64,000 bases of DNA from an uncultured Planctomycetota bacterium. Its GTDB lineage: Bacteria > Planctomycetota > Planctomycetia > Isosphaerales > Isosphaeraceae. The stretch lies in NCBI GenBank assembly GCA_963845755.1, contig CAWJTV010000001.1, forward strand, positions 96,001 to 160,000, in the 5' to 3' direction. A program made the position numbers and the translations under genes. Each line of letters opens with the position of its first letter. Within the stretch, counting starts at the first letter, position 1. Below the pieces are notes generated by a model, which did not search any database, was not told the DNA's origin, and worked only from the letters and a program-made list of their open reading frames with translations. Shown here in pieces: positions 35,391 to 54,466 of the stretch.

Positions 35391-36560
35391 TCTTCCCAGG
35401 GGTTACTTCATCCAGCAGGCTCGCCACGGCCCGGTCCAGATCATCGCCGCGGACGTCCTTGAAGCGGATCACGCCGGCCTTGTCGAGGACGAAGATCGTC
35501 GGGAACGAACGGACGCCCCACCGCGTCGTGATCGGTCCTGTGATCCCCCCATCGTACCAGCACCGCCAGGTGATCTCGCCCGAGGCGATCGACTTCCGGA
35601 GCGTCTCCACGGTCGCGTCGGTGCTCACGCTGACCATCGCGAAGGGCTTGTCCTTCAACCTGGCGACGAGCTCGCGCTCCTGGGGGTACATCCCTACGCA
35701 GGGCCCGCACCAGTTTCCGGAAAAGGTCAACACGACGACCTTGCCCCGGTCGTCGCTCAAGGCGAACGTCTTCCCCTGATGGTCCTTCCCGAGGATCTCC
35801 GGCGAGGCCTTGCCGACGGACAGGTTTCGCATCGCGAACAACTCGCCCTCGGTGATCGTTCCGAGCGACCGGTGATCATACCCATCTTCGATATCGGCGA
35901 ACTCCGCGATGATCCGTTCGAGCATTTGCTCGGATGCGCGATCGAGCGCCTCCGGGTCCGCCTGCTTCACGAATTGCTCGGTTAACGCTTTGTGCCGCTC
36001 ATGGACATACCGATCGATTTGCGCCGGCTTCTCGCGGATCCGCCGCACCATCCTCGCCTGGTATCTCAGGTACGTCGCCAGCGTGAAACAGGCCCGGCCC
36101 CGGTCGACGCGATTGGGGTTTTTCTCCAGCACCGCACGGAGCAGGGACTCGGCAACCGGCGCATGGACGAAGTAGAAGATCTGCCCGCAGACCTCGCCCA
36201 TGCCCGGGTCGCGCACGTGGTCGCGGAGCAGAATCTCCATGGCCTGGTAGGACTCATCCCCCGGCCCGGCCCTGGCCGTCTTGATGACGAACTTCAGAGC
36301 CTCGACGTTTTGAGGGGTTTTCGGATCAGCGCGGACCACGGCCAGGACCTCGTGCGTGTTCTTCGTCACCGCGTCCATGTAATGGTCGCTGGCCAAGGTC
36401 TGCTTTTGATTCAACTCCTTGTTGTAGACTTGAAGCCCTGCTCCTGCGCCTTGACGATCTCATCAAGCCTCGTCTTGTAGGCCGACGGCGCCTGACCGAA
36501 TGCCTCCGGCGCCAGCGCGAGACCCAGGATCAGGGCTGACACAACCAGGAACCGCCGCAT
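35377..36560 (-). CDS. Exported TlpA/redoxin-family thioredoxin-fold protein (one frameshift)
   Basis: Signal peptide MRRFLVVSALILGLALAPEAFG; C-terminal GKVVVLTFSGNWCGPC and WGVRSFPTIFVLD. Confidence 0.82.
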
Positions 36561-37224
36561 CCTGTCCCTCCTCCGAGTTGTCCGGGATCGCTGCTTTGTT
36601 GCAAAGTCTCGACCCAGGATACGCGAGTCGTCCGACAAGTGTCAATGATCCGGCATCACCAGCGATTCGGGCCATTACGGCGCCTCCCGACTTCGCCGCA
36701 GCGAGCTTCCGCCAGCCGGCTTTCAATGGCCCGATGGCGCAGGATGCCGTGTCGGCGGTCAGCGCGGGTCCTCGTCCCAACGTTTCGAGAGGAGGAAGCT
36801 CGCCAGATAGAGCCGCGCGTCGTCGGTCTTCCGGATCCGCCTCCAGGCCTCGAACGCCTCGCGCAGCCAGTTGAACGTAATCCAGGACCTCATGCCGTCG
36901 GAACACGCGGGTGAGGTCATAGTCCGCCTCATGGCGGAGATCCTGAAGCTTGATGAATGTGCTCGTCACGGTCTTCAGGTCGGCGGGGGTCGTGTAGCCT
37001 CCGCGCGGCGATTGCACGGCTTTGGGAAGCCTGTCATTCCCGATCATCGTGGAGGATTTCTTCATGTCCCCGTGATTGAGCGTCCGGTTGATCCGCGCCA
37101 CCAGGCCAGGCTCGAGGGCGAACAGGGCCGACGTCTCCGATGACAGCAGGTGGAACAACGCGTAATAGGCCGACGAGACCGCCCGGCGGAGGTTCATCTG
37201 CTTGGGACGTCGCGGATCCCACTA

Positions 37225-38445
37225 GTGCTCTGTCACAGCTTAATTTTGGGGTAGATCGACTTCAATTTGGAGCGGGCATCGTCGATCTTCATCTGCCAAT
37301 CCACTCCGCGCTGGGTGCTGTTGACGTCGGTTGACCAAGCGGTGGTCTCCACTCGCAGCGCCTGGGCATCACCGAAGCGGCGGCCGGCTATACACTGCCG
37401 CGTCAACGAGCTGAGCTCGTTCTCGGCGATGTTCAGCCAACTGCCGTGCTTGGGGATGTAGCAGAACTCGATGCGGCGGACCAACTGGCGAGCACGGGGC
37501 GGTGCAAAGACTTCGTAGAAGGCACCCTTGGTGTGCGTGTTCAAGTTGTCGCATACCACGATCACTCGCTCGGCACTGGCATAACGGCCCTCCAACAGCG
37601 CGGCCATCTCGATCGCCCAGTCAACCTTGGTCTTGGTATCCCGGACGGCCACCTCGCGCCAGCCCGCCAGCGGCTCGGTGAACATAAAGATGTTCGCCGT
37701 CCCGGCACGCTCGTATTCGTAGTCAACGCGCTTGGCGTGTCGGCGCGTGGCAGGGATCGGCACGCGGGACTCCTTCAGCAATTGCACCGGCTGTTCGTCC
37801 ATGGACAGGATCGGCCGCATCGAGTCGTAAGGCTTGGCGTAGGTCTCCAGCACCTCTTCCATGTGGGCCACGAACTCACCGTCAGCCTCGGGCGGGATGA
37901 CCCAGTACTCGATCTTGCGGTTGGTCATCCCGTTTTTTTCAGAGTCCGCCGCACCGTCTCGTAACTGACGGTTTCGACGATCCCCAGTTCCACCACCTTT
38001 CGAGCTAAGAGCCGCAGCGTCCAGTTGGCATAACCCGGGGGCGGTGACCCGAGCCGTGTGGCGATGATCTTCGCCTCCTGTTCGCCGTTGAGTAGCTTCT
38101 CGACCGGCGGCATCTGGCGCCTGCTGCGGTCCAATGCCTCTCGAAAGCCGTACTCCACGAGACGCTGACGAATGTTCTCGACGGTCTGCGTTCGGCATCC
38201 GAACGCCTCGGCGATGCGACGATCGGTCCAGTTCGGACCGTCCGCATCGGCCTTGAACAGGATCTGGGCGCGTCGAACCTTCTCGCTGGTTCCCTTCAAC
38301 TTCTTGATCACGGCCGCCAACTCGTCCCGTTCCTCAGCCGTAAGCCGGACAATGTACTTCTTGTTCATGGGGGCCTCCTTGTTCCCCGTATCATCCACGG
38401 TCGCGGAGGTTTCCCCAACCCCAATTTTTAGCTGTGACAAAGCAC
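37225..38445 (-). mobile_element. IS630-family insertion sequence (1221 bp)
   Basis: Terminal IRs GTGCTCTGTCACAGCT / GTGCTTTGTCACAGCT. TA duplicated at 37223-37224 and 38446-38447. Confidence 0.92.
37233..38368 (-). CDS. IS630 transposase in two ORFs joined by a -1 frameshift at A7
   Basis: HTH ORF MNKKYIVRL...LKK and DDE ORF with MDEQP, CDNLNTH, PKHGSWLNIAENE. Slippery GAAAAAAAC at 37932-37940. Confidence 0.9.
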
Positions 38446-38490
38446 TAGGCGAGTTCTTGCGCTGGTCCAACAGGTCATCGTGGAGACTCA

Positions 38491-39122
38491 TCAAGCCTCC
38501 ACGGGTTCGGACTGCTCTCTGAGCGAGCGGAACGAAAGATAAGGAAAGCGATCGGGGGCAACCTGTCGGGCGACGTCTTCGAGGGGATTTCGGAGCCTTT
38601 GGGCCGCTTCCAGGAAGTCTTCATCCTTCTCGGAGACCTCGTCCGAGAGATACGCCCAGATCCAGAGGCCGGGGTCGCCCGTGTGGTCCAGTTTGGTACG
38701 GAACCGCAGCTCCGCAAGTTCCGCTGGCCTCCAAGGTGCAATCTCCCGTTCGATTAGCTTCCCCAACCGGAAAGCCTCGGCGTTCTCGTAGCGGTCGAAT
38801 TCGAGCAGTCGAATGATGTCCCGGAACAAGGGCAGCGCACTTTCCACGGTGTCGCCCGTTGCCGGGGCCATCGGGTTCACGGTCGAGGTCACCTGACGGA
38901 ACTCCGCCACGAGCTTCGCCAGTTGCGACCGCTCGGCATCAGACAGGAAAGCGAACTCCGACTCGTCGAATCCGGCGACAGACCGGGGCGTGACCCAATG
39001 CGTTGTCTTCCGAAGCATGGCCTCAATGGCGTCCGCATCGAGTGGAGGCACTCGGCGATGAATTCCGGAGCATAGAGGTTGGCCCCGATCCGCACCTTCG
39101 TCCAGAAGTCGTTAAACGCCAT
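38491..39122 (-). CDS. Hypothetical protein, likely partner of the HEPN-like gene (frameshifts)
   Basis: C-domain LRFRTKLDHTGDPGLWIWAYLSD...FPYLSFRS. Coupled to the HEPN-like gene by a TGATG overlap. Confidence 0.6.
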
Positions 39123-39466
39123 GATGATTCCCCGGAGAATCCGAGAGCCGGTAAGACCGTTGAACCTGATTATACCGACGAGCCAGCCGATCGATCACCC
39201 CTTCGTTTCGCACCCGCCCATGAGGAAGGATCGCTGGTATCATCGGAGAGCGACCATCTCACCGCCGATCGGACGGTGCAGCCGTCAGGCCCCTACGATA
39301 GGCCGTGTTTCCCGGCGAGCAGGCCACGGAGAGCGGAAGCCCGGCACCAAAGAATGCTCCATCCACCTGTCGATTCAGGCATACATGTGTTACGATGGCC
39401 TGACCTCGACAGGGGGAGGGGGCAACGACCGGCCGTTTGCGTTTCGCTCGGTGGAAGGAGCGGGCC

Positions 39467-42400
39467 ATGTCTCGGCTTCGCATCACCCAATCGGATGGGG
39501 CCAACGACTCATACCGCGTCGATCTGGAATTCGAGGTGGAAAAGAAGCCTCGCCAGACGGCCACGGCCACGTTCGCGTTCGGAATCTCCGAGTCGGATCA
39601 GGAGGACCTACGCTGGTACCTGGAAGACTTCCTCCAGTTCCCCCAGGATCCTGCCCCGACGATCGCGGCTCGCGTCGAGCGGCGGATGGGCGAGATCGGC
39701 AAGGACCTGTTCACCAAGGTCTTCCACTCCAGCGACGACGCGCACGACCTCTGGGCCAAGCTGCGAGAGAAGCTCGATGACACCCACGTCGAGGTCGTCA
39801 CCTCGGTCGAAGGCGCGACGGCGATTCCCTGGGATCTGATCCGCGATCCCAAGACCGACACTCCGCTGGCCCTCCGCGCCTCGGCGTTCGTCCGTGCCCA
39901 CCCTCAAGCCGCCCAGCAGCCCCAGGGCCCAAGACGAAGTCCGGGCCGATCCGCATCCTCCTGGTGATCTGCCGGCCTCGTGCCGGGGACGACGTACCGT
40001 TTCGTTCCGTAGCCAGTCGGTTGATCAAGGGGCTGAGCGAGCCGACCCAGGCGACCTACCAGCTCGACGTCCTGCGCCGCCCACCTTCGATCAACTGGGC
40101 CGCGTGCTCCGCCGGGCCAAGGCGGAGAGGAAGCCCTACCACGTCGTCCACTTCGATGGCCACGGGATCTATGCCGATTTGACCGTCGCGGGCCATGTGG
40201 CCCAGATCCTCCAGAAACTCTTCCCCGTCATCTTCTCGGCGCCGCGTACCGGCCAGCACGGCTTTCTCCTTTTCGAGAACCCCCAGATCCAGGAAAACCT
40301 TGCGCCCATCGATGGCACCAGGCTCGGAAACCTGCTGGTTGAGACCGATGTGTCTGTGCTCGTTCTCAACGCCTGCCGCAGTGCCCACGCCGAGGTCGAA
40401 GACGAGTCCGAGCCCACCAACCGGCGAGCCGCCGACGAACCTCAGCGCGGCCCAGGCGGCCGACGATCTTCATGAGCGGGTGCGGACCTTCGGCACACTG
40501 GCCCAGGAGGTCATGGAAGCCGGCGTGGCGGGCGTGGTGGCAATGCGTTACAACGTCTACGTCGTCACGGCCGCCCAGTTCGTCGCCGACCTCTACGCCG
40601 AACTCGTCCGCGGCCGGACGCTCGGCGCCGCGGTCACGATGGGCCGCAAGCAACTGCATGACAACCCCAACCGCAGCATTGCCTACGACCCACTCCCCTT
40701 GCAGGACTGGTGCGTACCGGTCGTCTACGAGTCTACGCCGATCCGGCTCTTTCCCGTCCAGAAGAAGGCCGATGGCCTGACGATCACGATCCAGGCCGGC
40801 GACACGGCCTCTCGCCGCGGTGCGCTCGACAGCGAGCTACCCCGCCCGCCCGATGCGGGCTTCTTCGGCCGCGACGAGACGCTGCTGGCCCTCGACCGGG
40901 CCTTCGACACGCAACAGGTCGTGCTCCTGCACGCCTATGCCGGCAGCGGCAAGACCACCACCGCGGCCGAGTTCGCCCGCTGGTATTCCTTGACCGGCGG
41001 CATCACCGGCCCGGTCCTCTTCACCTCGTTCGAGCAGTACAAACCGCTGCCCCGGGTGCTCGACCGGATTGGCGATGTCTTCGGTCGGATGCTCGAACAA
41101 GCGGGAGTTCACTGGCTGGCCCTCGATGAAGCCGATCGGCGTAAGGTGGCGCTGGATGTCCTGAATCGGATCTCGGTCCTCTGGATCTGGGACAACGTCG
41201 AGCCGATCGCCGGCTTTCCAAAGGGGACGCCCTCGACCTGGAGCGACCTGGAACAGAAGGAGCTGGCCGACTTCCTTCGCGATGCCCGCTCGACCCAGGC
41301 CCGGTTCCTGCTCACCAGCCGCCGCGACGAGCACGATTGGCTGGGCGACCTGCCGCGAAGAATCGCGGTCCCGGCGATGCCCATGCAGGAGCGGGTGCAA
41401 CTGGCCCGCGCCCTTGCGGAGAAGCGCGGCCGCCGGATCACCGACGTGGAAGACTGGAGGCCGCTGCTGCGATTCACCGAAGGCAACCCGCTCACCATCA
41501 CCGTGCTCGTCGGCCAGGCCTTGCGCGATGGCCTGAAGACGAAAGTGCAGATCGGGGAGTTCGTGACGGAGTTGAAGGCAGGTACCGCGAAATTCGACGA
41601 CGAGGCGAGCGAAGGCCGCACCCGATCGCTCGGCGCGTCGCTCAGCTACGGTTTCAACCACGCCTTCAGCGAAGCCGAGCGCAAGCAACTGGCCCTGTTG
41701 CACTTCTTCCAGGGCTTCGTCGACGTGGACGCGTTGAGGATGATGGGCGACCCCAAGGCCGACTGGTGCCTGCCCGAAGTGCGTGGCCTGACGCGAGAAG
41801 CCGGCATCGCCCTGCTCGATCGCGCCGCCGAAGTCGGCCTGCTCACCGCGCTCGGGGGCGGCAATTACACCATCCACCCGGCCGTGCCCTGGTTCTTCAA
41901 GACCCTGTTCGACGCCTACTATGCCGGTCCCCCGACTGATTCGGCCGACGATCGTGGCGGCGAAGAGAACTCCCAGGCCGGCCGCGCCATGCGGGCCTTC
42001 GTGCGGGCGATGGGTGAACTGGGGAATTACTACTCGGCAGGAATACGTCAGCGGCAATAGCGACGTGATCGCCGCTTTGTCCGCCGATGAGGCCAATTTA
42101 CTGTACGCTCGGCGCCTGGCCCGTCAGAACGGCTGGTCGGATCCGGTCGCCAGCACGATGCAGGGCTTGAGGCTCCTATACCAGCACAGGGGCCGCAGGG
42201 TGGAATGGAAGAGCCTGGTCGATGAGATCGTACCCGACTTTGTGGACCCGGCCACGGACGGACCACGACCAGGCCGCGAGTCCGCCTGGAGCCTCGTCAC
42301 GCAATATCGCGTGCATCTCGCTCGGGAGGCACGAGAGTGGGCGAACGCCGAGCGGCTGCAACGAGTCTGTGTGGAATGGGATCGTCAGTCTGCCGAGCAC

Positions 42401-43285
42401 TTCATCGACACGTACCAGGGTCGGACGGATCCTCCATCGTCAGCGATGAAGCCCAGCCACCCGGATCCGAACGACCACCAACAACTTCGGTCAAACGGCC
42501 GCCCTTCCGGGACCGCCTCGCGGCGGTCCTGCCAGGCCTGTCCCCTACCGACCGAAATCTCATCCGCTCCCTGGCGGTCTCGCTGCACGAACTGGGCGAA
42601 ATCCAGCGCGAACGTGGGGAACCGGCGTGTATCGCCTCTTACCAGGAATCGCTCGACCTGGCCGAGGAGATGGGTGAGCGTGCCGGTGCTGCAATTTGTG
42701 CCTTCAACCTGGGCACGGCCCACAAGGACATCCCCGCCATCCGCGACCTGGACCGGGCCGAAAATTGGTATCGGCGCAGCCTGGAACTTTATGACGAGCG
42801 TGACCGGCTCCGTCGAGGAAGATCGCAGGGTCAACTGGGTGGCGTGGCGCTCGAACGATTCTGGGAGGCCAGGAACGCTGGCGAGGCGGCGGCCACGCTG
42901 CTCGCTCACCTCAACGCCGCGCGCGGCCTATCAGCAGGCCCTCGCGTTGATCCCCGAGGATGCCGTGAATGATCGGGGGGTCGCTCACGGCCAGCTCGGC
43001 TCGATCTACGGGGGAGCCGGTGATATCGACCGCGCCCTACCGCATTACCGCGAAGCCATCCGTTACAGGGAATTGGCAGGCGACAGTTACGGCGCCGCAC
43101 AAACCATCCGCTACAACGTCGCGCTGCACCTGGCCCAATCCGGCCGCTTCGTGGACGCCCGGGAATACGCCCGCGCCGCCCTGAATGGCTTCTCCTCCTA
43201 TGGATCCGCCGCGGCAGATTGGGTTCAAAAAACGCAAGAATTGCTCAAATGGATTGACGAGGCTATTGCCAGGAAGAAGGGATAG
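39467..43285 (+). CDS. CHAT (caspase-like) protease - P-loop NTPase (STAND/NB-ARC-like) - TPR protein (frameshifts)
   Basis: LRWYLEDF, IPWDLIRDP, HVVHFDGHG, VLNACRSA, FFGRDE, Walker A AGSGKTT, Walker B WIWDNVE, LLTSRR, GNPL, then TPRs. Confidence 0.85.
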
Positions 43286-43381
43286 GTCGAATTCACCAAA
43301 GCGCCGCCGAGCCGAACAGAATGTCTGGCGACGTCATCAGAACCAGAACCGTTCACCCCCCTATCGAGAGACGAGATCCCC

Positions 43382-43777
43382 ATGAACCGCAACGAATTCG
43401 CCGCAATGATCGCCGCCGAGCCGAACCTCTCGGGACCGATCGAACGGGCCGGGCAGGCCGCGCGGCCGGGGCACTACACCGTGGTGGCCGAGGCGGCCGT
43501 CATTGCGCTGATGTTCCCGATCGTCCGGTACATCATCGTCCAGATCGGCCTGCCCTGGCTCCATGAGCTGAAGCGTTACAGCGAACTCCAGCGTCAGAAG
43601 GTCCATCAGTGGATCGACGAGCGATCGCGCGCCGAGGGCCTCGACCCCGACGCCGCCGAGGCCGCCAGCGACGCCCTCTGCCGGGAACTCGAACAGACCA
43701 CCAGCGCCTCGGCCCGCGCCTCCTGGCAGCGCCTGGCCGAGCTCTTGAAGGCCGGGAAGGACGAAGACAACGCCTGA
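43382..43777 (+). CDS. Small hypothetical protein with one hydrophobic segment, downstream of the CHAT gene
   Basis: Intact 131-aa ORF with purine-rich RBS and segment VVAEAAVIALMFPIVRYIIVQIGLPWL. Confidence 0.7.
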   Translation: MNRNEFAAMIAAEPNLSGPIERAGQAARPGHYTVVAEAAVIALMFPIVRYIIVQIGLPWLHELKRYSELQRQKVHQWIDERSRAEGLDPDAAEAASDALCRELEQTTSASARASWQRLAELLKAGKDEDNA

Positions 43778-43957
43778 ACGTCATCTCCTAGTGAACCCGC
43801 CGAACGATCGCCTTGGGTCGCAACCCATAAGAGATCGCCACTGGGTAACATCAAGGTGAGGCAACACGCCTCTAACGACTTGGCGTATAGCTGAGGTGGG
43901 TCGTGTTTCCTTTTCTCCTCGGAGCTTCGCAATCTCTCAGATCCGTCAGGAGGGATC

Positions 43958-44398
43958 TCAGCGATTGGATTCTCTCGGCGGCCACCAACCAACCTGTACC
44001 CATAGCGAGCGAGCCGCCACGAGCTCTGGCCGGTTCAGTTGAAGGGTGACGACGGTGGCGCGACCGCGCGGCGTCAAGCCGATGATCTCCGTACCGTCCT
44101 CACTCCAGGAAAAATGATCGGGCCATTTCTGTCGCCGCGGGTTCCACAACCGGACGCGCTTGCCCGTGGCGGGATCTCGCCCCTGGATGCGATCGCCCTT
44201 GAACTCGTTGCATGCATGGCAGGCCAGCCATAGGTTCTTTTCAACCGTCTGGCCGCCTCTGGCTTCGGGAATGATATGCTCGATGGTCAGGCGAAACCCC
44301 GCAATGCTCTCAGGCGTCCGGCAATAACCACAGCGATTGCCGGCGATCCTGGCCACGCGCTCGCGCAGTCGGCGCGGCACACGGGCCTTGCCGGCCAT
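43958..44398 (-). CDS. HNH endonuclease
   Basis: RCGYC, IEHIIPEARGG, NLWLACHACNEFKG and NPRRQKWPDHFSW. Confidence 0.9.
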   Translation of the reverse strand: MAGKARVPRRLRERVARIAGNRCGYCRTPESIAGFRLTIEHIIPEARGGQTVEKNLWLACHACNEFKGDRIQGRDPATGKRVRLWNPRRQKWPDHFSWSEDGTEIIGLTPRGRATVVTLQLNRPELVAARSLWVQVGWWPPRESNR

Positions 44399-44400
44399 GG

Positions 44401-44811
44401 CTAGAGATCCCCGATGGTCGGGACGCTATGCCCGCGGTACTTCAGCAACAAGGTCGCGTAGGACCGCCGGAGCATCAGACAGTCCCCATCCGCGCGCAGC
44501 TCGCCCAATGCGTGTTTCTCCCGGTCCGTCAACTCGCCTCGCTGGTTCTTATCAAGAAGGCGTTCCAAACGCTGCTGCTTGACCGGAGCGGGACGACTTC
44601 GCGCGATTTTCCACAATTCGTCATCGCCGAGATCTTCCATGGCCTCGAGTTGGGCTCGATATTCGGCCGGCACTTTCTCCAACGACGGTGTCGCGGCCCG
44701 GACGATGTTCACCAGCGCCTTCTCTACGGATTGGTTCATCCCCTTGGCGGCGCGGCGGACCCGCTCATAGACGTCGTCGGGCAACTCCAGGGTGAGCATG
44801 GGGTGGCTCAT
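44401..44811 (-). CDS. Putative antitoxin with ribbon-helix-helix-like N-terminus
   Basis: LTLELPDDVYERVRRAA N-terminus. Ends 2 nt before the HNH start. Confidence 0.65.
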   Translation of the reverse strand: MSHPMLTLELPDDVYERVRRAAKGMNQSVEKALVNIVRAATPSLEKVPAEYRAQLEAMEDLGDDELWKIARSRPAPVKQQRLERLLDKNQRGELTDREKHALGELRADGDCLMLRRSYATLLLKYRGHSVPTIGDL

Positions 44812-45259
44812 GATCGATTCCTTTCCACCGTTACGGGATGCTCAATGGGCCTACGAACCTTCGGTGCCGGTGGTTCCGCCTTTCGAGGTTATCGGGGTAG
44901 CCGGTCCTGATCAAGCCAGGTATGAGCTGCTCCCATTCGCTGGCCCAGTCATGATGGAATCCTCCCTCTACTCCGCGATCGCCTCCATTCGGTCAAGCGA
45001 AACGATCTCGCGGCCCATCACTCCGAGCAAAGCCACGATTCGTTTCGGTTCCGCAAGAGGGAGGAAGTTGAGGCCCACCGATTGTGGCTTGCCGGAAAAA
45101 ACCTGGCCATCGACCTAATCGGAAGCTAAGAAACCACTTATCGAAACCCCCGATTCCACGGAGGCCGTCTGGACACTCCATGGCAACACGTGTATACTAC
45201 CAATTCCTCCCCGTTTCGTTGGTAGCAGTTCCACAAAGGGAGATGAGGACCAACCAGGG

Positions 45260-51874
<6,615 letters not shown>

Positions 51875-51962: not shown

Positions 51963-53422
51963 GGAACGCCGACGAAATAACATCCCCATTTCAGGGTGCC
52001 AAACTGCTGTTCGCCATGAGAACCTAGGTAAGATAGGAAGATCCAGGCTGTTCCTGGGGCGCGACCCGTCTGCCTCCCCGCGATGTCGGTTTTCGGAGGG
52101 CCCTTCTGGTCCCGGGGGGCGTGCGGTGGTATAGCGAGGATTGTTCCGTATCTGGGTCTTTAGCCGGAGGCCAATCATGTCGCCTTATTCCCCGGACGTC
52201 GAGCGGACCATGAGAGCATTCTACCATTCCTTGCGCGAGAATGATCGGCGACGGTATGCGGCGGTCGAGGCGGCCAAGTTGGGTCACGGCGGGGTCGAGT
52301 ACATCGCCAAGGTCTTGGGCGTCGATCCCAAGACCATTCGTCACGGCCAGCGCGACCTCGAGGATCTCCCCGCCGAACCCGCTCCGCAGGTCCGCCAGCC
52401 CGGCGGGGGGCGGAGACGGCGGCTCGATCAAGACCCCGAGATCACCAACAACTTCCACAAGGTCCTCCTCGATCGCACCGCCGGCAGCCCAACCGCGGAG
52501 TCCCTGATCTGGACCAACTTGACCAAGATCGAAATCGCAGGTGGCATGCGAGAGTGTGGAAGCTTTGTCAGTGTGCATATCGTCAGCCAACTGCTCGATC
52601 AGGAAGGTTTCCATGAACGCAAAGCCCTGCGCATGGAACCGCTGAGCCGCCACCCCGAGCGAGACCACCAATTCCAGACGATCGGCCGGCTCAAGGGGGA
52701 ATACCTCGACTCCCCCCACCCGGTCCTGAGCATGGACCTGAAATCCCGAGAACGGCTCGGCAACTTCTTCCGCGCCGGCACGCTCCAGACGCGACAGACG
52801 ATCCGGGTGTTCGACCACGACTTCGACGAGTTCGCCGAGGGATTCGTGTTGCCCCACGGGATCTACGACCTCAAGCAGAATCGCGGATACATCCACCTAG
52901 GCACGAGTCATGATACCAGCGAATTCGCATGCGACTGCGTCAAGGACTGGTGGGACCGATTCGGCAACGCGGTCTACCTGCAGGCGACGTCGCTGCTGCT
53001 GCTCTGCGATGGCGGCGGGAGCAACCCGGCGGACAACGACCGCTACCAGCAGCACTTGTTCCGGGCCGACTTGCAACGCCTGGCCAACGACCTGGAGTTG
53101 GAGATCCGGGTGGCGCACTATCCGCCGTACGCCTCGAAGTTCAACCCGATCGAACATCGCCTGTTCCCCCACCTGACGCGGGTCTGCAAGGGCGTCATCC
53201 TGCACAACATCGACTGGGTCGCCGAACTGATGAGGAAAGCCACGACGCGGACGGGCCTGACGGTTCAAGTCAACATCCTGGACAAGGTCTATCAACTCGG
53301 CCGAAAGGTCAGCGAAACCGCCAAGGATGCCGTGAAGCTGCTCCGGGACGCCATCCTGCCACGCTGGAACTACCGCATTTTACCCAATGTGTGAAGTCGG
53401 GAAGTTATTTCGTCGGTGTTCC
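51963..53422 (+). mobile_element. ISAzo13-family insertion sequence (1460 bp)
   Basis: 24-bp IRs GGAACGCCGACGAAATAACATCCC / GGAACACCGACGAAATAACTTCCC (22/24). No clean target duplication visible. Confidence 0.88.
52177..53394 (+). CDS. ISAzo13-family DDE transposase
   Basis: ENDRRRYAAVEA, SHDTSEFA, LLLLCDGGGSN, HYPPYASKFNPIEHRLF and C-terminal WNYRI. Intact ORF. Confidence 0.9.
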   Translation: MSPYSPDVERTMRAFYHSLRENDRRRYAAVEAAKLGHGGVEYIAKVLGVDPKTIRHGQRDLEDLPAEPAPQVRQPGGGRRRRLDQDPEITNNFHKVLLDRTAGSPTAESLIWTNLTKIEIAGGMRECGSFVSVHIVSQLLDQEGFHERKALRMEPLSRHPERDHQFQTIGRLKGEYLDSPHPVLSMDLKSRERLGNFFRAGTLQTRQTIRVFDHDFDEFAEGFVLPHGIYDLKQNRGYIHLGTSHDTSEFACDCVKDWWDRFGNAVYLQATSLLLLCDGGGSNPADNDRYQQHLFRADLQRLANDLELEIRVAHYPPYASKFNPIEHRLFPHLTRVCKGVILHNIDWVAELMRKATTRTGLTVQVNILDKVYQLGRKVSETAKDAVKLLRDAILPRWNYRILPNV

Positions 53423-53481: not shown

Positions 53482-54466
53482 TCAGGTGGCATAGGCGTTG
53501 ACTCGGAACCGGTGCAAGTTCTCGCGGACCCAGGCGATCGTCTCGTCGAGCCCGCGTTCGAGCGAAAACTGCGGCTCCCATCCCCAGAGGTCGCGTGCCT
53601 GCGCCGTGCCGGCGAGGAGCCGCTCCACCTCGCTGGCGGCCGGCCGGATGCGCTGCGATTCGGACTCGACACGGAGGGACCGTCCAAGTCGACGGCCGAT
53701 CACCTCGACCAACTCGCCGATCGCGATGTCGTCACCGCGGCCGATGTTGACCGCACGACCCAGCGCCGCATCGCACTCCGCGATCGCGACGAAGCCTGCC
53801 ACCGTGTCTTTGACATAGGTGAGATCGCGGCGGGGGTCCAGTCTGCCGAGCTTGATCACCGGCCGCGACAACGCCTGGCTGATGATCGTCGGAATGATCG
53901 CTCGGGCCGACTGCCGCGGGCCGAACGTGTTGAAGGGCCGCAAGATCGTCACGGGCAGATCGAACGCCCGGTGATAGCTCTCCCCCAGAGCATCCGCGGC
54001 GATCTTGGTCGCGGCGTATGGGGACTGGCCCTGAAGCGGGTGCCGTTCGTCGATCGGCACGGACCGCGCCGTGCCATAGACCTCGGACGTCAACGTCAGG
54101 ACCACCCGTTCCAACGTCGAGCTGCCCCGGCATGCCTCGAGCACGCTGCGCCGTGCCCAGCACATTGGTTTGGATCACGTCGTAGGGATTGTGATAGGAG
54201 TAGGGGATCGCGATCAAGGCCCCGAGGTGGAATACCCGCTCCTGTCCCTCGACGGCCTTTCGCACGGCGCTCGGATCCTTCAGGTCGCCCCGGGCGAGTT
54301 CGAGCTCGGCTTGAATCTCCGCGGGCAGTTCCGCAAGGTGCCCCCGGTCGTCGCGACCACTGTAGCGCACGAACGAGCGAACGCGATGTCCTTCCTGCAC
54401 CAAGCGTTCCACCAGATGGCTTCCGATGAACCCGCCCGCGCCCGTCACAAGGACCTTCCTGCCCAT
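53482..54466 (-). CDS. NAD-dependent sugar-nucleotide 4,6-dehydratase/epimerase (one frameshift)
   Basis: TGAGGFIGSH, HLGALIAIPYSY, STSE-like TSEVYG, SPYAATK and RPFNTFGPRQ. Confidence 0.9.

Follow-up and report, generated by a model that had tools for sequence, protein, structure and literature searches.

What does a small gene of no named family do when it stands directly behind the gene of a caspase-fold protease built like an NLR, and is that protease gene still intact? Both questions are raised by a locus in an uncultured bacterium of the Isosphaeraceae (Planctomycetota; GenBank assembly GCA_963845755.1, contig CAWJTV010000001.1). The stretch of 64,000 bp that was analysed (positions 96,001 to 160,000 of the contig) is referred to as the window. 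Within it, a large gene coding for a CHAT protease domain, a STAND-type NTPase and a C-terminal TPR region is followed on the same strand by a gene of 131 codons (Table 1). Comparison of this locus with its relatives revealed that the two genes constitute a conserved operon.

A conserved two-gene cassette

Two collection scans made with an alignment of the small protein returned 20 loci (8 and 12, respectively). In 14 of these the small gene adjoins a CHAT-STAND-TPR gene, in either order; the linkage test that a preliminary description of the locus had suggested is thus positive. The neighbouring large gene is a close homologue in 13 loci (L006, L007, L009, L011, L012, L013, L014, L016, L017, L019, L020, L021 and L022). 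In the remaining one, L018, a distant CHAT-STAND-TPR protein of 1230 residues (25% identity, Pfam CHAT 67.4 bits) is encoded directly after the small gene. Most loci, which are of Planctomycetota type, have the CHAT gene first; the small gene comes first in L012 (titled as a gammaproteobacterial metagenome-assembled genome, MAG), L013 (titled Beggiatoa) and L018. The co-oriented 131-aa open reading frame (ORF) of the window and its 96-nt spacer are exactly as first described. Spacers measure 93–96 nt in the window, L007 and L014, and can be aligned with a mean column identity of 80%. In five loci (L009, L016, L019, L020 and L021) the genes overlap by 4 nt (ATGA), the ATG of the small gene lying on the TGA of the CHAT gene. 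A scan of positions 38900–44100 for consensus promoters and terminators returned none of either, a result that is not informative for this kind of organism. When ORFs from 14 loci were compared all against all, the CHAT and the small gene were the only shared families. Because only these two families recur, the locus is a two-gene cassette with unrelated flanks.

Both genes are rare. Among 401 sampled Planctomycetota genomes, the small gene was found in one (G000, which carries the window) and the CHAT family in five, so that chance adjacency is negligible. Among 61 relatives, the small gene is present in four, including one remnant and one doubtful match, and each of five genomes examined has a single copy. 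The DNA of L008 stops 22 nt short of the small gene; its genome, G019, has an intact orthologue at the end of another contig. Small-protein and NTPase-core identities, compared over 10 loci, gave correlations of 0.62 (Pearson) and 0.25 (Spearman), but the pairs are non-independent and the values were not used.

The architecture initially assigned to the large protein (CHAT, STAND-like NTPase, TPR) was recovered by Pfam matches on both the window pieces and intact orthologues. The Pfam CHAT model (PF12770) matches pieces of the window gene at 24.4 and 26.7 bits, above the cut-off of 24, and intact orthologues at 44.1–74.3 bits (residues 116–405, E 1.5e-15 to 1.4e-20). In the latter (1274 residues in L007, 1311 in L009) the CHAT domain is followed by an AAA_16 match (residues 468–602) and then by TPRs. 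AAA_16 scores of 29.1–31.7 bits (29.1 for the window piece) fall just below the cut-off of 32.6, and STAND profiles score weakly against their cut-offs (nSTAND3 18.9 against 27.2, nSTAND_NTPase5 16.8 against 34, NB-ARC 15.8 against 23.5). TPR_12 (30.8 bits, cut-off 30.1), TPR_2 (29.6 bits, cut-off 27) and TPR_1 were matched by window pieces. The motifs named in the preliminary description, HFDGHG, LNACRS, AGSGKTT, WIWDNVE and GNPL, are all present. They show at least 95% conservation among 117 homologues, where the NTPase motifs read AG(S)GKT and LWIWDNVEP, and a set of 7 divergent sequences has H229, H233 and C304 without exception.

A profile search of the PDB with the large protein returned TPR proteins only (LGN/Pins and the TPRs of OGT). 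The AlphaFold2 model of residues 1–460 of the orthologue, built from 7 sequences, is of modest quality (pLDDT 62.7). Foldseek comparison of this model with the PDB yielded 25 matches at E ≤ 0.001, the best being SAVED-CHAT, DdvA, Csx29 and separase; the lowest E value is 5.5e-7, but TM-scores reach only 0.3–0.44. Across the 117 homologues the first ~870 residues are highly conserved, and few conserved columns occur beyond residue 970. Since the N-terminal ~870 residues are conserved while the TPR end varies, the TPR end follows the pattern of a sensor. Judged from its sequence, the large protein has the architecture of a STAND/NLR-like caspase-fold protease, and proteolysis is predicted.

The CHAT-STAND-TPR family is large: of 8000 candidates scored, 2052 reach E ≤ 1e-10. 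Identity to the L007 protein is at least 56% for all of the best 120 relatives, and wherever one of these has a named source, it is a MAG carrying the label Planctomycetota, Chloroflexi/Anaerolineae, Phycisphaerae or Competibacteraceae. For 117 full-length relatives, linkage to the small gene was assessed by a proxy, namely the same "longest contig" value in the small-gene and CHAT listings. By this measure, 12 relatives are linked to a small gene, 36 lie on contigs longer than 20 kb without one, and the status of 69 is unknown. In a FastTree phylogeny of the conserved 870 residues (117 rows), all 12 linked rows are found inside one 31-row branch (support 90), ten of them inside a 23-row clade (support 99), and none in the 75-row sister group. 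The distribution requires 4 changes on the tree, compared with 11.0 in shuffles, and none of 500 shuffles gave a value as low. Within the far larger CHAT family, the small gene is the mark of a single sub-clade.

Partner-bearing proteins also tend to carry a Pro/Ser/Glu-rich insertion ahead of the TPR array. The region is 61–70 residues long in carriers, compared with a median of 31, and the insertion is found in 8 of the 12 linked rows, 2 of the 36 unlinked long-contig rows and 12 of the 69 unknown ones. The correlation concerns one clade, hence one evolutionary event, and is a lead only. Residues of the large protein specific to the clade are limited to 8 scattered positions that form no patch.

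Some observations weigh against an obligate link between the two genes. Most CHAT-STAND-TPR relatives have no small gene; by the proxy, it is missing from 34 of 36 long-contig relatives outside the clade. In G397, an intact orthologue (61% identical) has no small gene within 17 kb. Small genes without a CHAT gene in the DNA covered were found in L010, where a sulfatase gene lies upstream, and in L015; no CHAT gene occurs in the DNA covered by the partial matches L023–L025 either. Because most relatives, that of G397 included, have no small gene, we conclude that the core function of the CHAT-STAND-TPR protein does not depend on the partner. The partner-less orthologue of G397, a genome of 48% GC, is located among IS66-like ORFs (L042, G397:C1:531000-548000), with a resolvase-like ORF, a 504-aa AAA ATPase and a masked stretch nearby.

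The 131-residue partner protein

The preliminary description recognised no family for the small protein, and our searches likewise gave no named one. No significant match was found in Pfam, NCBIfam, PADLOC or the PDB, where a profile search returned a single match at E 1. A word-seeded search identified 113 homologous clusters, and a hidden Markov model scan of 1.84 billion representatives found 100 at E ≤ 0.001, 79 at E ≤ 1e-10 and 22 at E ≤ 1e-30. The protein is the founder of a small but real unannotated family. Residues P46, P58, W59 and R71 are invariant in the family, and residues 56–79 are nearly so. Sub-threshold matches to the C-terminal part of Pfam HTH_67 occur in 13 of 89 members (best E 1.1e-4). 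Among viral contigs, 59 pattern matches included no relative of the small protein, and plasmids searched by tblastn gave no match.

AlphaFold2, run with 89 sequences, folds the small protein into a compact seven-helix bundle (pLDDT 81.9, pTM 0.78), with a low-confidence, variable stretch around residues 28–36 and a helical tail. Model and hydropathy thus reproduce the layout first noted, in which a short N-terminal part, a flexible stretch, a hydrophobic segment and a helical tail succeed each other. Fold searches with the model gave no clear match in the PDB (Foldseek, best E 0.95) or among viral proteins (BFVD, best E 0.88), and the best Z of a wide VIA search, 5.7, is under the noise level for helical bundles. 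The best ESM Atlas scores (0.88) belong to unnamed clusters; the nearest Pfam-bearing cluster is EACC1, at only 0.76.

The small domain also occurs joined to other enzymes. P0255 and P0272 are subtilases (Peptidase_S8) with the small domain at the C-terminus, and P0291 has it at the N-terminus, followed by a DUF900 alpha/beta hydrolase. By eye, the N-termini of these enzymes show no hydrophobic, signal-peptide-like stretch. A word-seeded search for longer, fused forms returned none, which is weak evidence. Given the three fusions, the small domain is a portable module that accompanies hydrolases. The large protein itself has no region homologous to it (hhalign of the small against the CHAT family, probability 0.3%).

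The hydrophobic segment had been described as a membrane segment, and the protein would then be an effector or anchor inserted in the membrane by one transmembrane helix. Hydropathy is in line with such a span: the family mean of the Kyte-Doolittle index over residues 34–52 is 1.92, and in 86 of 89 members some segment of 19 residues reaches 1.6 or more. The profile of the stretch is also matched by the single-span helices that recur in a PsbY polyprotein (P0307), and EACC1, the distant Atlas neighbour mentioned above, is a one-helix membrane protein. However, the stretch belongs to a compact bundle in the model, where it is split at a conserved Phe-Pro into helices 34–43 and 45–55. Positions 37, 49 and 54 within it are conserved as polar residues, and the equivalent stretch of P0291, P0264 and P0297 contains several Arg, Lys or Glu. 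Moreover, a true span would put the fused S8 and DUF900 enzymes, which are of a cytoplasmic type, on opposite sides of the membrane. Because of the Phe-Pro break, the polar residues, the charged divergent members and the placement of the domain in fusions, the stretch is probably the core of a soluble domain, and a transmembrane helix is improbable.

Frame breaks and surroundings of the window copy

The large gene of the window is distributed over seven frame pieces, as located by tblastn with intact relatives. The six frame switches were also placed by a codon-usage Viterbi model trained on long ORFs of the same genome, in which no homologue was used, and the gene of ~1270 codons rebuilt over frameshifts in the preliminary description was thereby confirmed. 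Read piece by piece, the gene aligns with P0117, an intact metagenomic protein of 1270 residues, over 1268 of them (86% identity). No frame piece has an internal stop, and 141 of the 143 residues invariant across 75 homologues are retained. In a DNA alignment with the L007 orthologue, the breaks are mostly single-base gaps; one is a 2-nt gap and one a complex site.

Similar breaks are widespread in this assembly (14.27 Mb, 49 contigs, 87.9% complete). The codon-usage model counted 0.37–0.43 frameshift-like junctions per kb of coding DNA on contigs C1 and C5 (1.16 Mb). The rpoB gene (G000:C34:79366-83015) is split over two frames, all uvrA copies of the genome, including that of the window, are split into several pieces, and the GDP-mannose dehydratase gene of the window is also split. 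Since these genes are broken, junctions occur at ~0.4 per kb genome-wide, and the read-through is free of stops and keeps nearly all invariant residues, the six frameshifts of the CHAT gene are probably for the most part indel errors of the assembly.

Alternatively, the large gene could be a true pseudogene in a decaying locus, with the small gene as a survivor. Several results count against an intact gene. Frameshift-like breaks are found at 1.62 per kb in the CHAT gene. The remainder of the window has 0.40 per kb, the 10 kb to either side of the gene 0.52 and the neighbouring uvrA 0.76; the CHAT gene exceeds its local background three- to fourfold. Six breaks are reached by only 2.2% of coding windows of 3.8 kb, those of the gene itself included, and a pseudogene would also account for the 2-nt deletion and the complex site. 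Relatives exhibit decay as well. The orthologous CHAT gene of L014 (L014:460-4131) has an in-frame stop at codon 45. In L006, the CHAT gene is parted from the small gene by a 3.6-kb insertion (L006:4356-7998) that encodes a serine recombinase (Pfam Recombinase and Zn_ribbon_recom). In G001, a genome of the same genus, the small gene is reduced to a 229-nt remnant (L003/L005, G001:C10:164578-167815), 87% identical to window positions 43536–43764, and no close CHAT orthologue was found there. These data are to be set against the broken essential genes of the same assembly and its other dense clusters of breaks, for instance 27 junctions within 21 kb at the end of contig C5. Among nine loci spanning the whole gene, the reading frame is single in L007, L009, L014, L042 and L043, and multiple in L006, L011 and L012 as in the window. 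The absence of stops and the retention of invariant residues are likewise at odds with a pseudogene, which we regard as possible but rather unlikely; assembly error is the preferred explanation of most breaks. Any pseudogene call in this genome needs confirmation at the level of reads, and the window copy of the module may be damaged. The truncated 1150-aa product of L014 (P0159) is recorded from 4 contigs and three sources.

Upstream of the cassette the window contains a chemotaxis cluster and genes for a binding protein, an alcohol dehydrogenase and a thioredoxin-like protein, followed by a 244-aa ORF, an IS630 transposase gene and a 186-aa ORF. Downstream come an HNH endonuclease gene, preceded by a small gene of its own, then a long gene resembling uvrA and the gene of an ISAZ013-type transposase. 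Mobile elements bracket the cassette. Two upstream ORFs previously described as a HEPN-type pair match no Pfam or NCBIfam family, and the IS630 transposase gene sits between them. Of the supposed HNH pair, the endonuclease was confirmed by its HNH_5 match, whereas its partner yielded sub-threshold matches only; the two genes may be a toxin-antitoxin-like pair. Neither pair is conserved beside the cassette elsewhere in the ORF comparison of 14 loci, and neither belongs to the unit. Six more HNH matches are present elsewhere in the genome. The uvrA-like gene has two complete UvrA modules in tandem and about five frame breaks; an open frame at 46065–49631 covers the end of the first module, a basic linker and the start of the second. 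The gene looks like a fused double UvrA.

Table 1. Position of the cassette, its motifs and its neighbours in the window
Feature	Position	Strand	Remarks
CHAT-STAND-TPR gene	39467-43285	+	~1270 codons; seven frame pieces, six frameshifts; TAG stop
Frame pieces	39467-39925, 39931-40095, 40077-40400, 40453-42036, 42041-42436, 42415-42924, 42920-43285	+	tblastn with intact relatives P0114 and P0117
Frame breaks	near 39926, 40073-40095, 40400-40453, 42033-42041, 42415-42484, 42920-42925
CHAT (caspase-fold cysteine protease) domain	39812-40674	+	coordinates transferred from L007 residues 116-405
Catalytic His motif HFDGHG	40149-40166	+
Catalytic Cys motif LNACRS	40365-40382	+	Cys codon 40374-40376
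STAND-type P-loop NTPase	40861-41493	+
Walker A AGSGKTT	40939-40959	+
Walker-B-like WIWDNVE	41182-41202	+
GNPL motif	41482-41493	+
C-terminal helical/TPR sensor region	42041-43282	+	variable part of the family
Pro/Ser/Glu-rich insertion ahead of TPR array	~42385-42540	+	~38 residues; L007 residues ~976-1025
Spacer between genes	43286-43381	+	96 nt
131-aa partner ORF	43382-43777	+	intact; ATG start; 131 codons
Hydrophobic stretch, residues 34-55	43481-43546	+
Most conserved stretch, residues 56-79	43547-43618	+	G-L-P-W-L-x-E-L-K-R-Y-S-E-L-Q-R-x-K-V-H-x-W-I-D
HNH endonuclease, 146 aa	43958-44398	-	HNH_5 E 1.4e-11; weak PtuB-like and IscB-HNH matches
HNH + 136-aa upstream gene pair	43958-44811	-	partner: sub-threshold ribbon-helix-helix matches only
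ORF	36463-37197	-	no Pfam or NCBIfam family match
IS630-family transposase	37233-38494	-	two overlapping frames
ORF	38491-39051	-	no Pfam or NCBIfam family match
uvrA-like gene	45258-51871	+
ISAZ013-type DDE transposase	52255-53376	+
GDP-mannose dehydratase gene	53485-54457		split

Proposed function and related systems

The logic of apoptosomes and inflammasomes is commonly traced back to bacterial proteases that combine a caspase fold with an NLR-like switch. To our knowledge, very few of these bacterial proteases have a known target. By analogy, we give an even chance to the proposal that the operon is a conflict or abortive-infection-type module, in which an NLR-like protease switch is paired with a dedicated substrate/effector or regulator. 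The variable TPR end would bind a trigger, and the STAND-type P-loop NTPase would drive oligomerisation upon nucleotide binding. The N-terminal CHAT proteases, activated by proximity, would then act on their targets. The co-translated 131-aa protein, helical and probably soluble, would most likely be the cognate substrate/effector of the protease, cleaved or released on activation, and the outcome would be growth arrest or cell death. Each of these steps, from sensing and oligomerisation to the activation of the protease and the cleavage of its partner, is inferred from comparable systems, as is the immune role.

Some results do not favour an immune module. No PADLOC-DB 2.0 model corresponds to either protein, and the system goes unrecognised in this check; the matches of the large protein are marginal (TPR 6.4e-5, SAVED_CHAT 5e-5 to 8e-4, mad8 1.5e-3). 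With its chemotaxis cluster, uvrA and two insertion sequence elements, the neighbourhood is not recognisable as a defence island. In sequence and fold searches, the small protein resembles no known protease substrate, pore-former or adaptor. The missing island context would suit a device for regulated proteolysis that signals stress or development, like DdvA or Csx29-Csx30, rather than one serving immunity or suicide. The CHAT-bearing anti-sigma factor DdvA and Csx29 are among the structural neighbours of the CHAT domain. In addition, conservation is unusually high over the first two thirds of the large protein, with 56–60% identity across relatives whose named sources include Planctomycetota, Chloroflexi/Anaerolineae and Competibacteraceae MAGs. 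The HTH_67-like matches of 13 small proteins would fit the same role. However, neither a sigma factor nor any other third gene is conserved nearby. Conflict systems typically show what is seen here, a patchy and rare distribution, frequent losses, mobile elements close by and a sensor end that varies. A signalling device is accordingly judged unlikely, and a conflict module is preferred.

Within such a module, the role of the small protein can be read in two ways. It may be a constant regulator or adaptor of the CHAT-STAND-TPR protein, which it would bind in order to keep it inactive, to localise it or to link it to a signal. Coupled translation implies that the two proteins are made in roughly equal amounts, and conservation of the small protein contrasts with variation at the TPR end of the large one. 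The additional insertion of the partner-bearing clade, which is probably disordered, also speaks for this reading, and the fusion of the domain to unrelated enzymes is adaptor-like. The same role has been proposed for EACC1 by Kaur et al. 2020 (PMC7159879). On the other hand, the lack of any region homologous to the small domain in the large protein leaves no basis for homotypic adaptor pairing, the insertion traces back to a single event, and the 8 clade-specific positions form no specificity-determining cluster. Regulation by the small protein is therefore a tentative reading.

We favour, narrowly and with equal caution, a substrate/effector. The small domain is found with CHAT in trans and with S8 in cis, and these are the two protease types known from gasdermin systems to cut an executioner encoded next to them. 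In addition, since most members of the CHAT-STAND-TPR family work without a partner, an add-on output fits better than an essential brake. A more specific version, in which the small domain is a cell-death executioner of a new kind released by proteases, in trans by CHAT and in cis in the subtilase fusions, and thus a counterpart of gasdermin or HeLo domains, is speculative. A complex prediction for the L007 pair (N-terminal and CHAT region 1–440, TPR region 870–1274 and the small protein, with the NTPase omitted) returned an ipSAE of 0.00 twice, which speaks neither for nor against a complex.

The module is a compact pair that lends itself to testing, consisting of one protease switch and one small dedicated partner that are produced together. 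The association of the partner domain with two other hydrolase types suggests a reusable death or immune part that is unnamed in databases. If the partner were a substrate or executioner, it would add a new effector class; if it were a regulator, it would show how such switches stay off.

Several known systems share features with the cassette. In bacterial and fungal gasdermin operons, a CHAT or S8 protease, often with NLR-like repeats, cuts a neighbouring small executioner, and the small domain described here is similarly found beside a CHAT protease and fused to S8. In contrast, the small protein has no gasdermin match in Pfam, and its all-helical model is unlike the gasdermin fold. In Craspase, Cas7-11 works with the TPR-CHAT protease Csx29 and the substrate Csx30. 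Craspase and SAVED-CHAT systems have the same protease fold as the large protein (Foldseek E 5.5e-7 to 1e-3), and in both a sensor-switched CHAT protease cuts a co-encoded protein, as is predicted here. The sensor differs: a STAND NTPase with TPRs takes the place of CRISPR RNA or a cyclic nucleotide. The surroundings contain no gene for a Cas protein, SAVED or a sigma factor, and Csx30 is no relative of the partner. In its order of effector, NTPase and repeats, and in the variability of its sensor end, the large protein recalls Avs, other bacterial NLR-like proteins and the Apaf-1 apoptosome. However, no Avs or NACHT model of PADLOC was matched, the sensor is made of TPRs rather than WD40 repeats, and a dedicated small partner gene is present. 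Amyloid signalling of the BASS/Bell type was considered as a means of coupling and rejected, as the tail of the small protein is helical and shares no motif with the N-terminus of the large protein.

Small domains that accompany proteases have been described by Kaur and colleagues. Their 2021 report (PMC8195603) describes fusions of Death-like adaptor domains with caspases, trypsins and alpha/beta hydrolases. The small domain follows a similar fusion logic; the difference is that the same domain is not present on both partners, as homotypic pairing of effector-associated (EAD) or Death-like domains would require.

A closer parallel is the predicted EACC1-caspase two-gene conflict system (Kaur, Burroughs, Iyer and Aravind 2020, eLife; PMC7159879). 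According to that paper, EACC1 has one conserved transmembrane helix, a small-residue patch and alpha+beta extensions. Both systems combine a small constant protein containing a hydrophobic helix with a caspase-led protein to which a STAND NTPase and repeats can be added. Like an EACC1 gene, the small gene lies 5' of its partner in L012, L013 and L018; the order is reversed in the clade of the window. The small protein is all-helical and probably soluble, unlike EACC1 with its single membrane helix and alpha+beta extensions. The distribution also differs, EACC1 being mainly actinobacterial and the present system being found in Planctomycetota-type and a few other MAGs. The Pfam EACC1 model (PF19953) did not match the small protein in its own genome at E ≤ 1, nor its homologue in G453, and EACC1 does not appear among 25 listed families out of the 42 that any of 89 members matched at E ≤ 10. 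EACC1 members were not found in 301 genomes of the phylum of G453, where controls gave no match either. Neither the small family nor an operon of CHAT-STAND-TPR protein and small partner was found described in full-text searches of the literature beyond EACC1 systems, although the supplementary tables of Kaur et al. 2020 might list such cases. EACC1-caspase systems are the closest analogue, but by the Pfam model the small protein is not a member of EACC1. It is best seen as a second, independent family of constant small partners for caspase-STAND proteins.

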